The position numbers and the translations under genes are program-made. Positions 18,296-55,823 of a DNA stretch of 64,000 bases are shown here, one piece after another. Source of the stretch: a virus; IMG/VR virus record IMGVR_UViG_3300045988_103544, positions 18,803 to 82,802 of that record. One strand, 5' to 3'. Every line of letters begins with the position of its first letter. Within the stretch, counting starts at the first letter, position 1. Under the pieces are notes generated by a model that did not search any database, had not been told where the DNA came from, and saw nothing but the letters and a program-made list of their open reading frames with translations.

Positions 18296-18969
18296 AGATT
18301 ACTTTGATCCAATACCACCAGGTCTTGTTGTTGCATTCTTTACTGTTTGAGGGAGCTTATCCCACCATACCTGCTTCTGACGAAGTCTTTCAAGCTTTGC
18401 CTTATACTTCATTTTAACTAGAATTGAAAATTAAAAGAAAATTAATCATCTGTGTAATATTAAAATTATCTAGGTAAAATACCATAATTTAGTCATAGAC
18501 ACATCTAGAATAGCCTACAAACTTCTAAATTTAGAATCATGAACAATTTATCACTCTAGAAATGAAAATGTCTTAGAGAGACTCTGAGACATTGCCTTCA
18601 AAGTGCTCATCAGCATACTTACGAGCATCTTTGATATCATCGAAATATCTACTTGGTTTTAATCGGTCACTACGTTTTACCGCAATTTTACCACCAGTAG
18701 TACGATAAATAGTAATAGTGTCCACTGTTGCTTTTACAATTTCTTTAGCCATAATTAATTATTTTTAAAAATTTTACTTAAAGTTTCTGTTAATTCAGGA
18801 TATAGGTAATACAGTGCTAATAACGTATTTATAATTGGACATACTAATATTAATATTGTTATTATATTAGTAGGAACATTAATTTCAGTCCATCTGTCTA
18901 TAACAGCAAATGCAGATCCAATATAAATAGTTATACCTGCAACAATTATTATTGATATAACTAAATACA

Positions 18970-27801: not shown

Positions 27802-27812
27802 ATGTGTCTTTG

Positions 27813-27883
27813 CGCCTAGACTAGGATTCGAACCTAGGAACCTTTCGGGGCAAGTTAACAGCTTGCTGCCGTTGACCACTTGG
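27813..27883 (-). tRNA. tRNA-Asn (anticodon GTT), unusual 12-nt variable region
   Basis: Acceptor GTCTAGG/TCTAGGC with two G.U pairs, anticodon stem GCAAG/CTTGC, loop CTGTTAA, T-arm CTAGG-TTCGAAT-CCTAG. Confidence 0.45.
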
Positions 27884-27904
27884 CTACCTAGACGAAAGTC
27901 CTGA

Positions 27905-34185: not shown

Positions 34186-34515
34186 GTGGAGCATTGGAGA
34201 GTCGAACTCCAGTCACTCCGATTTGCATCAAAACGTTCTTACAGCATAGGTTTTAAAGACTATCCTTGTCTGTTAGGGTTGACAAGATTAATATTGTCAA
34301 CTTCCACCACTCTGTTCCTAAAGTATACAGAGAACTAATAAAGAAATGAAAAATAGTGCACCTTTCTGTTCCTAAGCAAGTGCTGCTCGACTTATTAGGC
34401 AGCAGCCTGATAAGCAGGAGTCATATTGATAACTCTAGCGATTATTGTTTTGTTGTCTCTCCAACTGTCTTGCTGTGTTTCTTATCTCCTCGAAGTTCAA
34501 AACCACGAATGCCCC
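34186..34515 (-). ncRNA. ssrA: tmRNA (SsrA-like), ~330 nt
   Basis: 5' end GGGGCAT pairs with 3' ATGCTCC-A, including the G3.U70 alanine identity pair. T-arm GGAGTTCGACTCTCC. Internal tag-like frame ...ARVINMTPAYQAAA followed by TAA TAA. Confidence 0.6.
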
Positions 34516-44644: not shown

Positions 44645-44757
44645 AATAAAGCTTCCTATCTTCACAGACAAGAAGCCTAACAACTCTTTAACGTTATAAA
44701 GTCCGCTGACTTTATATTTTAAACATTAATCGTATTAGTTTTTTAAATATGGAAGAG

Positions 44758-44791
44758 TAGCACTAGCGATGCTTGAAATCGCCTTTCCACT
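44758..44791 (-). tRNA. 3' half (anticodon-stem 3' strand, T-arm, acceptor 3' strand) of a tRNA gene split by the HNH insertion
   Basis: AGTGG-AAAG-GCGAT-TTCAAGC-ATCGC-TAGTGCT-A; pairs with the 5' half at 45542-45575. Confidence 0.45.
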
Positions 44792-45498
44792 TATTTATTT
44801 TCTAATATTAATTCTCTTAATTCTTTTTTAGTATGGGGTATACCATAATTTTTACACCATTTTCCAATGGTATTATCAGTAACTCCATACATTTCCCCTA
44901 TTTTAGTGAAAGGGTATTCTTTTATTAAACTTAATAGTTTTTCTTTATCAGGTCTATCTTTAGGATCTACTTTAAATTGGTTTCTGTGTTTTACAGCACA
45001 TTTTATACAGTATGTAGAACCTCTAGATATTTCTTTTCCACAATCTTTACAATAGTTTATATTTTTTAATTTTTTAGTACCCCAATTATCAGTTTGAGAA
45101 TGACAATTTGGACATAATATCTATAAGTTCTCTAATCTATTATCATCATGTTTACCATTAATATGATGTAATTGATAAGAGATAGGATTATCTAACCAAT
45201 ATCCATTCTTACAAGGACATTTAGGATTTTCACATTCATTCTTTTTAAGACCTTCTTTAATTAGTCTCTTTAAAAGATTGCTAGATTTATAATTACATCC
45301 ATCTACTAAAATATCTTCTAAGCTTTTAGCTTTTACTATATCTCTTTTATTTAGAAAGTGATATTGTATTCCGTAACTATTTAAAGTTTCTTCTAAAACT
45401 TTTATAGCTGAACCGGAAACTGATTTACCTAGATGCCTTAATACATCACTTAAACTTGTAGATTTATTTACAATTTCCTATAATTCTTCTTTACTCAA
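44791..45498 (-). CDS. HNH homing endonuclease, paralog of 54798-55616; uses TAG as a sense codon (2 in-frame TAG); probable TTG start
   Basis: Continuous frame ...KLSKEEL(TAG)EIVNKSTSLSDVL...SYQLHHINGKHDDNRLENL(TAG)ILCPNCHSQTDNWGTKK... ending TAA. The second TAG sits where the paralog has ENLRFLCPNCH and many HNH proteins have ENLQ. No long ORF in the track here. Confidence 0.6.
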
Positions 45499-45541
45499 TT
45501 TATTATTAATTTAATTATTGTTTAATATAATATCTTTTAAA

Positions 45542-45575
45542 TAAGTGGCGTCCTAACCAGCTAGACGATAGTGCC
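45542..45575 (-). tRNA. 5' half (acceptor, D-arm, anticodon-stem 5' strand) of the split tRNA gene
   Basis: GGCACTA-TC-GTCT-AGCTGGTTA-GGAC-G-CCACT. Acceptor GGCACTA pairs with TAGTGCT and anticodon stem CCACT with AGTGG in the 3' half ~770 nt away. Confidence 0.45.
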
Positions 45576-45640
45576 AAGTAGATTCTCTATCTTCACAGAC
45601 TGAAAATCTCGTGTATTACAAATGAATACTTTTAATAAAT

Positions 45641-45770: not shown

Positions 45771-45840
45771 TGGAGATACGTGGAATCGAACCACAATCTC
45801 AGGATTTTCATCGTGCTCTAACCTTTTGAGCTATATCTCC
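45771..45840 (-). ncRNA. tRNA-like element (70 nt) with canonical acceptor, D and T arms but no foldable anticodon arm
   Basis: GGAGATA/TATCTCC acceptor, GCTC/GAGC D-stem, T-arm TGTGG-TTCGATT-CCACG; middle ACGATGAAAATCCTGAGAT does not form a 5-bp stem/7-nt loop. Confidence 0.3.
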
Positions 45841-45948
45841 ATAGCCCACATTTCTATAAAGGAGAATAGTGGTAACACCTACCTATACTAATAAATTTAT
45901 TAGTCAGGATTTATCTAAACACACTAACAATATATCAAATTAAATTTG

Positions 45949-46032
45949 TACGGTAGAAAGGATTCGAACCAATGACCTTCTCGAAATGACCTATTATAAA
46001 AAGAGATGCTCTAACCACTGAGCTACTACCGT
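45949..46032 (-). ncRNA. tRNA-like element (84 nt) with enlarged 20-nt anticodon-region loop
   Basis: ACGGTAG/CTACCGT acceptor, GCTC-AGTGGTTA-GAGC D-arm, T-arm ATTGG-TTCGAAT-CCTTT; central stem TCTC/GAGA encloses TTTTTATAATAGGTCATTTC. Confidence 0.35.
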
Positions 46033-46087: not shown

Positions 46088-46486
46088 TTAAAAGCCGAAT
46101 GAAAACATGGTATCTGCGGAAGTACTAAGAGTTACGTAAGGAATTTTATTTCTTACTGTAATAAAGACAATAAAGCGTCTTCCTGTATTAACCTCTCCGC
46201 AATTATGGATTTCTACTCCATCCTTCATTTCAGAAGAGTATATTTTTAATACCATTTTACCAAACTTACTATTACTAAAAGTAATAGTTTTTCTAGCTTC
46301 ATTATATACTACTGAAGTTTTAATATATAATGGGTCACTCCATTCACCATCTTGATAAACAGTGATAGAACCATAATTAAACGCATGAGCTATTGTAGTT
46401 AATACAATAAAACTCATTAATAAAATAATCTTTTTCATATTACTCAATCTTTTTAATGTTAGTACGGAGTAAAGGATTCGAACCAA
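46088..46486 (-). CDS. secreted hypothetical protein (132 aa)
   Basis: Signal peptide MKKIILLMSFIVLTTIAHA. Confidence 0.45.
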   Translation of the reverse strand: MVRILYSVLTLKRLSNMKKIILLMSFIVLTTIAHAFNYGSITVYQDGEWSDPLYIKTSVVYNEARKTITFSNSKFGKMVLKIYSSEMKDGVEIHNCGEVNTGRRFIVFITVRNKIPYVTLSTSADTMFSFGF

Positions 46487-46543
46487 TATAACCTCTCTAT
46501 GAATTGTGGAAATGAGGCGCTCTAGCCATTAAGCTAACTCCGC
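46463..46543 (-). ncRNA. tRNA-like element (81 nt) with enlarged 20-nt anticodon-region loop
   Basis: GCGGAGT/ACTCCGT acceptor, D-stem GCTT/GAGC, same unusual T-arm ATTGG-TTCGAAT-CCTTT; stem GCCTC/GAGGT encloses ATTTCCACAATTCATAGAGA. Confidence 0.35.
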
Positions 46544-54747: not shown

Positions 54748-54782
54748 TCTCCTATGGTGTAATGGTTAGCACAGAAGACTCT
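54748..54782 (+). tRNA. 5' exon of intron-containing suppressor tRNA (predicted anticodon CUA after splicing; Gln-type U1-A72)
   Basis: TCTCCTA-TG-GTGT-AATGGTTA-GCAC-A-GAAGA-CTCT, ending on U (a group I 5' splice site follows a U). Confidence 0.6.
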
Positions 54783-55785
54783 TAAAAATTTTAAAGTATG
54801 GAAAATAAAATTTATAAACTTACGGATAAAGAGTTTTCAGACTTAGTTAAGTCAAGTCTGAATATCTCAGAAGTTTTATTTAAACTTGGATATACTACTG
54901 TTGGAAACAGTTGGGGATATTCACAAGTTAAACAAAGAATGCAAGATTTAAATTTATCAGGTAAAGATTTTAGAGGCAAATCAGCTATAGTCGACTGTAA
55001 TGAAAAGAAAGAAATAGATGCTTCTAAATTATTATGTGAAAATTCAAAACACGCACGTAATATATTAAGAAGCTATATATTAAGAAACAAATTACTTCCT
55101 TATACATGTGCAATATGTGGAATTACAGAATGGCAGGGTAAGACTTTATCTCTAGAATTAGACCATATTAATGGTGTAAATAATGATAATAGAATAGAAA
55201 ATCTAAGATTTTTGTGCCCTAATTGTCATAGTCAAACCACTACTTATGGTGCTAAAAATAAACAAAAAGTAGAATCTAAATACGAACTTTCTGATGAATT
55301 AAAGAATTTAATTATTAGTTCTTATATAGAATTAAAAAATCAAAAGAAAGTTGCTGATAGATATAATTTAAATCCTAAAGCAGTAAAACAAGTTTTATCA
55401 GAAGCTGGATTAACTAAACAAAATCAAAAGTATGTTATACAATATGACTCTTCTCATAATGAAATAAGAAGATTTGGGTGTATAGCAGAATGTTGTCAAT
55501 GGTTAATGGATAATAATTTAGTAACTACTAAATTAATGAAAACTTGTAGAGCAACTCTAAATAGAAATGTTGGCATTCTTTGGAAAAACTATTACTTTGA
55601 AATATTGGATGCTTAAAGGATAATCCATAATCTTTAAGTAGAATCTCTTTTAATCGACTTGGAAGCGTATATACTTAGTATAAAGTGACAGGGCGCAAGT
55701 TTAAATACAGCGTGAACGACTAAATAAAGAGACTGGTCCTAGGACTGGATGTGATAGTCTAATCCTCTACAGAGGTGTTAAAATG
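54783..55785 (+). mobile_element. Group-I-like self-splicing intron (~1003 nt) in the tRNA anticodon loop, carrying an HNH homing endonuclease ORF
   Basis: Starts 15 nt before the HNH ORF. The 3' 170 nt are GC-richer and structured, with R-like (AACGACTAAATA) and S-like (GATAGTCTAATCC) group I core elements. The last nucleotide is G (55785), as expected for omega-G. Confidence 0.5.
54798..55616 (+). CDS. HNH homing endonuclease (intron-encoded)
   Basis: 272 aa, standard code; HNH motif LELDHINGVNNDNRIENLRFLCPNCHSQ; paralog of 44791-45498. Confidence 0.7.
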   Translation: MENKIYKLTDKEFSDLVKSSLNISEVLFKLGYTTVGNSWGYSQVKQRMQDLNLSGKDFRGKSAIVDCNEKKEIDASKLLCENSKHARNILRSYILRNKLLPYTCAICGITEWQGKTLSLELDHINGVNNDNRIENLRFLCPNCHSQTTTYGAKNKQKVESKYELSDELKNLIISSYIELKNQKKVADRYNLNPKAVKQVLSEAGLTKQNQKYVIQYDSSHNEIRRFGCIAECCQWLMDNNLVTTKLMKTCRATLNRNVGILWKNYYFEILDA

Positions 55786-55822
55786 AAATCTTTTAGCCAG
55801 GGTTCGAATCCTTGTGGGAGAA
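55786..55822 (+). tRNA. 3' exon of the suppressor tRNA
   Basis: AAA-TCTTT-TAGC-CAGGG-TTCGAAT-CCTTG-TGGGAGA-A. Pairs with the 5' exon (acceptor TCTCCTA/TGGGAGA, anticodon stem GAAGA/TCTTT). Spliced loop is CTCT+AAA = CUCUAAA. Confidence 0.6.
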
Positions 55823-55823
55823 C

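Follow-up and report, generated by a model that had tools for sequence, protein, structure and literature searches.

The Interrupted tRNA-Glu Locus

The 64,000-nucleotide (nt) stretch of virus DNA analyzed here, hereafter the window (positions 18,803 to 82,802 of the IMG/VR record IMGVR_UViG_3300045988_103544), contains, within a cluster of transfer-RNA (tRNA) genes on the minus strand, a gene for tRNA-Glu(UUC) whose two halves are separated by 752 nt; which inserted sequence consists of a 45-nt leader followed by an open reading frame (ORF) for an HNH homing endonuclease, on the same strand as the cluster. The window has a G+C content of 30%, and its nearest public record is MT835539.1, a human-faecal phage scaffold without annotation that is 94% identical over half of a 20-kb query; the Prevotella Lak megaphages are more distant public matches, at 86%. 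Each of the minus-strand genes between 56.3 and 63.2 kb contains 4–12 TAG codons in frame; many other genes of the window have none, and this pattern matches the recoding of TAG to Gln described for the Lak phages (PMC6784885). All the comparative sequences are metagenome assemblies; related loci are designated by L-numbers. The features of the split locus are as follows:

45544–45575, minus strand: 5' half of tRNA-Glu(UUC), positions 1–31, with the acceptor strand, the D-arm, and the 5' strand CCACT of the anticodon stem; identical to the intact alleles
45538–45548, minus strand: 5' strand, CCACTTATTTA, of an 11-bp helix closing the insertion; kept in the minimum-free-energy (MFE) and centroid folds
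45499–45543, minus strand: leader, 45 nt, composed of A and T only
45510–45508, minus strand: alternative start codon ATT, four codons upstream of the TTG
44791–45498, minus strand: HNH homing-endonuclease ORF, 235 codons from TTG to TAA, matching phrog_10822
45478–45480, minus strand: in-frame TAG at codon 7
45121–45123, minus strand: in-frame TAG at codon 126
44787–44797, minus strand: 3' strand, TAAATAAGTGG, of the 11-bp helix, holding the last two codons and the stop codon
44758–44791, minus strand: 3' half of tRNA-Glu(UUC), positions 39–73; matches the intact alleles except for G39>A

Read along the minus strand, the 5' half (45575–45544) is GGCACTATCGTCTAGCTGGTTAGGACG-CCACT, or part by part GGCACTA-TC-GTCT-AGCTGGTTA-GGAC-G-CCACT; and the 3' half (44791–44758) is AGTGG-AAAG-GCGAT-TTCAAGC-ATCGC-TAGTGCT-A, in which the 3' strand AGTGG of the anticodon stem is followed by the variable loop, the T-arm, the acceptor strand, and the discriminator A. 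The pairing between the halves, which a previous inspection of the letters alone (the sequence-only reading) had described as perfect, is indeed complete in the acceptor (7/7), D (4/4), anticodon (5/5), and T (5/5) stems; and ARAGORN calls the concatenated halves a tRNA-Glu once the 7-nt loop CTTTCAA is placed between them. At the split locus as it stands, no tRNA was called by either ARAGORN—with or without its intron mode—or Rfam, and the intron mode, with introns allowed up to 1500 nt, found neither this nor the other split tRNA of the window, at 54.8 kb.

The uninterrupted version of the gene, which the same reading had proposed to look for in related genomes, exists: in MT835539.1 an intact 73-nt tRNA-Glu(UUC) with the loop CTTTCAA is located exactly where the window has the 752 extra bases, between flanks that are 96.5% and 94.5% identical to those of the window. 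That same intact gene is present in 20 IMG/VR contigs, while about 10 further contigs contain an intact gene with the stem CCACT, the loop CTTTCAA, and the 3' strand GGTGG; among the intact copies in Lak-like contigs (n = 30) the body is invariant. Because close relatives carry an intact gene at the same locus, the split tRNA-Glu is real and not a chance resemblance, and the sequence-only reading was right in recognizing here a second tRNA gene split by an HNH gene.

The leader begins with TATTTAA, which 7 nt resemble a mutated anticodon loop (CTTTCAA in the intact alleles), and the first 6 nt form the 5' strand of an extension of the anticodon stem. The resulting 11-bp helix, CCACTTATTTA with TAAATAAGTGG, is uninterrupted and without bulges, and its six extra Watson–Crick pairs have a chance of about 0.002 of arising from the local composition. 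The dimensions of the locus required some correction in this respect: a helix between the flanks had been noticed, though with 7 instead of 11 bp; the leader had been estimated at about 60 nt instead of the actual 45; and the 4 nt thought to lie downstream from the ORF are in fact 0, since the stop codon TAA occupies 44793–44791 and its last A is position 39 of the tRNA.

The HNH ORF and Its Paralog at 54.8 kb

When TAG is read as Gln, the ORF encodes an HNH protein of 235 residues, of which residues 3–221 align with positions 6–244 of the 245 in the phrog_10822 profile of HNH endonucleases (E 4.2e-37). The score against the Pfam HNH domain (PF01844), 19.3 bits, is just below the cut-off of 21.4. 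The catalytic His/Asn/His residues and the zinc-binding Cys pairs are retained: H116, N124, N128, H137, C98, C100, C133, and C136 are invariant in the family and again among 58 homologues. A model built for P0001, the closest database homologue (96% identical to the window protein), has a mean predicted local distance difference test (pLDDT) score of 85.5; a fold search with that model gave weak, domain-level matches alone, to HNH nucleases and helix-turn-helix domains (E of at least 0.2), and a sequence search of the PDB with the HNH protein returned no match.

Both in-frame TAG codons that had been reported are there (45480–45478 and 45123–45121). The one at codon 7 is conserved in 16/16 alleles and aligns with CAA (Gln) in L254, a 61%-identical relative; the one at codon 126 is unique to the window, with CAG in 13/13 of the other intact alleles. 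The TTG proposed as the start aligns with the ATG of L254, and the ATT four codons upstream, as an alternative, aligns with the ATG of L022, which belongs to a group of 47%-identical relatives; whichever of the two is used, the predicted start is non-canonical. We found no promoter-like or terminator-like signal of the ORF's own above background, and no homology between the leader or trailer of the cassette and those of free-standing relatives apart from the region of the start codon.

The window protein is homologous to the product of a second HNH ORF (27% identity, E 1e-19), as the sequence-only reading had stated; both match phrog_10822, and the paralog reaches 26 bits against the Pfam HNH domain. 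That second ORF is within the following feature:

54749–55823, plus strand: interrupted amber-suppressor tRNA(CUA), with exons 54749–54784 and 55791–55823 and the HNH ORF at 54798–55616

Comparison with intact relatives of this tRNA-Sup(CUA), which read ...GAAGA-CTCTAAA-TCTTT... with the loop CTCTAAA, puts the 1,006-nt insertion precisely at the U35/A36 junction of the CUA anticodon, so that both paralogs are found in anticodon regions, in agreement with what had been proposed. The boundaries of the 54.8-kb insertion are intron-like, in that it follows a U and ends in a G (U|...G|); Rfam nonetheless recognized no ribozyme in it, and its 169-nt non-coding tail folds no better than shuffled sequences (z = 0.14). 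The HNH ORF of this insertion contains no TAG codons. Should the 54.8-kb tRNA be the only CUA suppressor, its splicing would be needed for reading the TAG-rich late genes.

Mobility and Selection of the Cassette

By means of junction patterns and exact-protein look-ups we located 19 interrupted contigs from independent samples, corresponding to 16 distinct cassette alleles; at least 30 contigs are intact at the same tRNA-Glu site. Among the cassette-bearing contigs is ERZ27281243 k141_189702, with a length of 180 kb. Identical junctions and an intact ORF characterize 14 of the 16 alleles. The pairwise dN/dS (ratio of nonsynonymous to synonymous substitution rates) of the ORF is 0.08–0.11, with dS at 0.13–0.19, so that the ORF is under purifying selection. 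MT835539.1 shares the 54.8-kb insertion at 98% identity and lacks the tRNA-Glu cassette, and the latter is therefore a polymorphic element.

The tRNA body around the cassette varies as it does in the intact alleles (G15/C15, and T/C at 20–21); its T-arm may be GCGAT/ATCGC, ACGAG/CTCGT, or ACAAG/CTTGT, in shuffled combinations with the D-loop variants; and the upstream neighbour of the split gene is tRNA-Lys or tRNA-Asn, depending on the contig. The stem CCACT/AGTGG, in turn, always accompanies the cassette, even on bodies that have TAACT/GGTTA or GGATT/GATCC when intact, which constancy we read as a signature of co-conversion. The intact alleles have four variants of the anticodon arm, namely TAACT/GGTTA, TAACT/AGTTA, GGATT/GATCC, and CCACT/GGTGG. 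Decay is seen in one cassette lineage (L246–248), which has lost 12 nt and shows a frameshift at codon 38 and the change G26A; the two alleles with a dead ORF belong to a single lineage. The site is thus polymorphic among close relatives, its flanks are shuffled with co-conversion, and the ORF is under selection while degenerate copies exist; the element accordingly behaves as a mobile HNH homing-endonuclease cassette that spreads among related phages.

The Endonuclease Family and the Sibling Cassettes

At least 580 stretches in IMG/VR encode relatives of the enzyme, and among the best 80 of them, 76 lie no more than 1.2 kb from tRNA genes; in the usual arrangement a tRNA on the same strand ends 30–180 nt upstream. 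In the 61%-identical relatives L249 and L254 the split gene is likewise a tRNA-Glu, interrupted at the same point, and a replacement tRNA-Glu comes with the cassette. In L249, and in eight similar places, the order is the 5' half of a tRNA-Glu(A), the HNH gene, a complete tRNA-Glu(B) that overlaps the end of the HNH ORF, and the T-arm and acceptor of the tRNA-Glu(A); L254 has the same tRNA-Glu(A) 5' half with a mutated loop, TTTTTGA. In the 47%-identical relatives a tRNA-Gln(B) and the HNH gene are situated between decaying remnants of a tRNA-Gln(A), with the breaks at about positions 35 and 40; and L236 and L237 contain both cassettes in tandem.

The sibling cassettes for tRNA-Glu (L249/L254) and tRNA-Gln (L022/L023) are accordingly of the same family as that of the window and occupy the same anticodon-loop zone; in-frame TAG codons are found in L254 and in the L022–L024 group, and none in L249. 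The siblings bring along an entire second tRNA of matching specificity while the old halves decay, whereas the window cassette has no such tRNA and its halves are perfect. We therefore regard the window cassette as a stripped-down version without the replacement tRNA, and the HNH family as a specialist of tRNA genes, with the anticodon loop as its insertion zone. That the element is polymorphic and mobile, and that its closest family members bring a replacement tRNA, could not have been seen from the window by itself.

A custom scan for split tRNAs in the loci of 84 relatives picked up the two window loci again and, as a single additional convincing case, L161. There (IMGVR_UViG_3300029120_000014, positions 890–1947 of L161) a tRNA anticodon loop is split by 991 nt that contain a small ORF and a 40%-identical HNH gene; the HNH frame, with TAG counted as sense, ends at a TGA within the 3' strand of the anticodon stem, which packing is as tight as that of the window locus. 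Two further loci deserve mention in their own right. In L233 (positions 1–1166; ERZ943876 k127_945901; P0002 cluster) a tRNA-Gln(B) is followed by a hybrid HNH gene—the N-terminal half of the L022 type and the C-terminal half of the cassette type—and by an orphan tRNA-Glu 3' half, which arrangement reflects either unequal crossing-over of the tandem cassettes or a chimeric assembly. In the free-standing relative L025 (1447–1761) the codon immediately preceding the HH of the HNH motif is TAA instead of TAG/CAA, so that either this gene is dead or the TAA is occasionally read through by a UUA suppressor tRNA.

Interpretation of the Insertion

Our preferred explanation, which we consider probable, is that an HNH homing cassette of the free-standing type—the 45-nt leader plus the 235-codon ORF—has taken the place of the anticodon loop of the tRNA-Glu(UUC) gene. 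The enzyme would cut the intact tRNA-Glu alleles of co-infecting relatives, in or beside the anticodon arm; and the repair of the double-strand break would then copy in the cassette together with the adjoining nucleotides of the CCACT/AGTGG stem, by co-conversion. The tRNA halves would persist as homology arms that are renewed with each homing event. Because the loop with the UUC anticodon is gone, the interrupted gene would give no decoding tRNA, and it has most likely been destroyed as a tRNA rather than carrying a removable intron; which inactivation we infer from the sequence alone. The enzyme is probably expressed weakly and late: its start is not an ATG, and the TAG conserved at codon 7 would require the amber suppressor of the phage; the endonuclease, therefore, would be made only once that suppressor tRNA is active.

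That two tRNA-like fragments should resemble each other by chance, or have been joined by an assembly artefact, we regard as practically negligible: though every sequence comes from metagenome assembly, and the related contig L233 is possibly chimeric, the same junctions recur in 19 contigs from independent samples and assemblers, and the halves are identical to those of a genuine tRNA gene. The sequence-only reading had left a choice between an inactivating insertion and a compact intron whose core overlaps the ORF; of these the insertion has held and the intron has not. A self-splicing group I intron of that kind would fit the anticodon region, the encoded homing endonuclease—as in many group I introns—and the clean, intron-like boundaries of the 54.8-kb paralog. 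Nevertheless, the covariance-model search that the same reading had suggested gave no ribozyme in Rfam at the split locus, at the gathering threshold or at E<=10, and in particular no match to the core of Intron_gpI or related models, the hits being just the neighbouring tRNAs and noise; which outcome favors the inactivating insertion. Moreover, the non-coding space amounts to 45 nt of A and T 5' of the ORF and 0 nt 3' of it. The variation at third codon positions among the 14 intact alleles (64/236 sites) is even along the whole ORF, its 3' end included, and therefore no RNA core is concealed there. The last base of the inserted sequence is an A and not a G, and the nearest upstream G would give a 3' loop part of 10 nt; nor can the exons re-form the loop, since the UUC loop CTTTCAA is not regained by joining any prefix of TATTTAAAAG... 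to any suffix of ...AAATAAATA. We accordingly judge that the insertion is not a group I intron, and consider the contrary exceedingly improbable.

Several observations weigh, all the same, against a homing cassette that simply destroys its target. A spare tRNA-Glu was seen neither in the window nor in the retrieved parts of the cassette contigs, while the spare tRNA carried by the close relatives of the enzyme implies that the loss of the tRNA is costly. In addition, the Lak phages contain unexplained insertions in anticodon loops (PMC6784885), one of which, at 46463–46543, is in the window. All the cloverleaf pairs and the 6-bp extension are kept in 14/14 ORF-intact alleles, whereas the two ORF-dead alleles have lost the extension; variants that preserve pairing, namely C27>T (giving U-G) and the double compensatory ACAAG/CTTGT, are limited to cassette alleles, no intact allele with the T-stem ACAAG/CTTGT being present in IMG/VR; and the leader has 3/45 variable sites versus the 64/236 of the third codon positions in the 14 alleles (Fisher p=0.002). 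The retention of the cloverleaf and helix, the pairing-preserving variants, and the constraint on the leader could reflect selection at the level of the RNA instead of mere renewal by homing; for whereas halves that stay intact can be put down to repeated homing into fresh alleles, the conservation of the helix and leader does not obviously follow from it.

The first two of these observations would be accommodated if a protein-dependent or otherwise unfamiliar splicing system removed the insertion and ligated the halves into some functional tRNA, which system would be the same that the 'enigmatic' tRNA introns of the Lak phages need. If TATTTAA is a remnant of the loop, the insertion would come after position 38, beside the canonical 37/38 intron site, and the pairing of the 3' end of the cassette with that loop-like sequence resembles an anticodon–intron helix. 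We consider such splicing quite improbable, however, because the UUC anticodon is unobtainable by any excision. When all the splits of a 7-nt loop between the flanks were tried, those that kept U33 had the anticodon AAA only, on which grounds a loop rebuilt from the flanks was rejected; and excision directly after TATTTAA would leave the loop UAUUUAA, with A33 and the anticodon UUU, on a Glu body. A bulge–helix–bulge tRNA intron was likewise discarded, since the helix has no bulges and excision fails to restore the loop. The window locus thus has an intact tRNA body and no 7-nt loop with U33 and the UUC anticodon; the decaying copy and the polymorphism of presence and absence, moreover, suit a selfish insertion.

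The remaining observations would be explained if the cloverleaf and the 11-bp helix, atop the homing cassette, were kept by selection in the service of the endonuclease gene: the transcript of the cluster would be cut at the tRNA ends by RNase P and RNase Z, freeing a tRNA-shaped RNA (about 820 nt) that would be protected at both ends and would carry the HNH message as its giant 'anticodon loop'. To the conservation of every pair and of the leader may be added that the 818-nt RNA retains the acceptor, D, and T arms and the 11-bp helix in its MFE and centroid folds (z = -4.8), and that the ORF, within a same-strand tRNA cluster, has no promoter- or terminator-like signal of its own. On the other side, repeated homing into fresh alleles accounts for intact halves without selection; the helix strands are invariant in the 14 alleles and deleted in the 2, leaving no covariation between them; both dead alleles come from one lineage; and the old halves decay in the relatives with a replacement tRNA, the frame therefore being not generally required for expression. 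Accordingly, we hold this tRNA-framed messenger RNA (mRNA) to be unlikely. If true, it would constitute a natural counterpart of the tRNA scaffold engineered for stabilizing RNAs, and a delivery of mRNA inside a tRNA of which no earlier case is known.

Other tRNA Features of the Window

A hairpin with the loop GTCTGTGAAGATA lies about 10 nt upstream of both the tRNA-Glu (45584–45600) and the tRNA-Ser (44653–44669), on the minus strand; its 7-bp stem covaries (GATTTTC/GAGAATC versus GCTTCTT/AGGAAGC), the two matches compare with 0.06 expected, and the structure is also conserved in L055, L099, and L233. This hairpin may be a processing signal or one associated with a promoter.

In the Lak-like loci L001–L021 and L031–L146 the genes for tRNA-Glu, tRNA-Phe, and tRNA-Asn have near-invariant bodies with discrete, fully covarying anticodon stems; the window tRNAs compared were those at 45771–45840 and 27812–27893. 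The stem is CAAGT/ACTTG or CGGGA/TCCCG in tRNA-Phe and CAAAA/TTTTG or TCTGA/TCAGA in tRNA-Asn, while the tRNA-Ser has no such variation. An arms race with endonucleases that target the anticodon arm, or with anticodon nucleases of the host, could be the origin of these variants. The tRNA-Phe-like gene at 45771–45840 (minus strand; 48.5 bits in Rfam, no ARAGORN call) lacks, by comparison with the intact relatives, 3 nt in the 5' strand of its anticodon stem, and is probably a damaged tRNA.

The tRNA-like sequence at 46463–46543 (minus strand) has an 18-nt anticodon loop, in which ARAGORN places the anticodon UUA and an 11-nt intron; a tRNA-Gly(UCC) with a short insertion reads better. Relatives have kept the gene, and it fits the category of 'enigmatic' Lak tRNA introns (PMC6784885). 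It was considered as a spare tRNA-Glu and rejected, since it reads better as a tRNA-Gly(UCC) and occurs also in genomes with an intact tRNA-Glu. At 45948–46032 (minus strand) there is an 85-nt tRNA with the anticodon UUA—a suppressor of the ochre type, by which UAG would be readable through wobble—also conserved in relatives; it exists beside the CUA suppressor, with TAA as the main stop codon. Finally, ARAGORN predicts a transfer-messenger RNA at 34186–34515 (minus strand) with the tag peptide ARVINMTPAYQAAA, which Rfam did not report at the gathering threshold.

Significance for Phage tRNA Clusters

The tRNA clusters of phages are mosaics of fast turnover, for which the cause is poorly understood, and the present locus points to one driver. 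A widespread HNH family appears to home into the anticodon regions of tRNA genes, at times bringing a replacement tRNA along and here deleting the function. Such a family would account for the gain, loss, and duplication of phage tRNAs, and might also account for the discrete 'swaps' of anticodon stems on otherwise invariant tRNA bodies. For annotation, the consequence is that tRNA finders miss the split genes, while gene callers using the standard code fragment an ORF that contains TAG.

Comparison with Known Systems

In full-text literature searches we came across no phage tRNA gene described as interrupted by a homing endonuclease; neither HNH nor homing is mentioned in the Lak papers, PMC6784885 included. 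The nearest characterized system is SegB of phage T4, a free-standing homing endonuclease of the GIY-YIG family in the T4 tRNA cluster, with a recognition site that includes the T-psi-C motif of tRNA genes (PMC2330249). As with the window cassette, a homing-endonuclease gene lives in a phage tRNA cluster and has its target within the sequence of a tRNA gene; SegB brings about, in mixed infections, the preferential inheritance of itself and of the adjoining tRNA DNA (PMC2330249), which activity is only predicted here. The SegB gene, moreover, encodes a GIY-YIG enzyme and is located between tRNA genes, whereas the window gene encodes an HNH enzyme (phrog_10822) and is inside a tRNA gene, at the anticodon loop, which gene it would destroy.

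The HNH enzymes of the MobE type are a second point of reference, and mobE reportedly splits the nrdA gene of Aeromonas phage Aeh1 into 'genes in pieces'. The MobE of T4 is an HNH enzyme with intron-less homing (PMC2790892). Intron-less homing, intact and adjacent pieces of the target gene, and the co-conversion of flanking markers are all shared with the window cassette. A protein gene split in this manner nevertheless stays functional, as the polypeptides assemble, whereas the target in the window is an RNA gene and a tRNA without its loop cannot decode.

Group I introns with homing endonucleases occupy the anticodon loops of the cyanobacterial tRNA-fMet and tRNA-Leu. Comparable introns with endonucleases are found in the tRNA anticodon loops of Patescibacteria (PMC13011429). 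These bacterial introns, like the window insertion, carry an endonuclease ORF in the anticodon region, and filled and empty alleles coexist; the window insertion differs from them in having no ribozyme core and no terminal G, and in that its exons do not restore the loop. The 54.8-kb paralog is nearer to such introns by its boundaries, yet is not recognized by Rfam.

As to the Lak phages themselves, 'enigmatic' short introns found with the eukaryote settings of tRNAscan were described in their tRNA-Phe, Gly, Thr, and Tyr (Devoto et al. 2019, PMC6784885), with sequences that are highly conserved between cohorts (PMC6784885). The phage lineage, the location in anticodon loops, and the polymorphism of presence and absence are common to these introns and to the window insertion; no endonuclease, however, was reported in the short introns (PMC6784885), whereas the insertion in the window measures 752 nt, codes for a protein, and is in a tRNA-Glu. 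Measured against these systems, the mechanism that we propose for the window cassette is an ordinary one, and it is the target and the architecture that are unusual.

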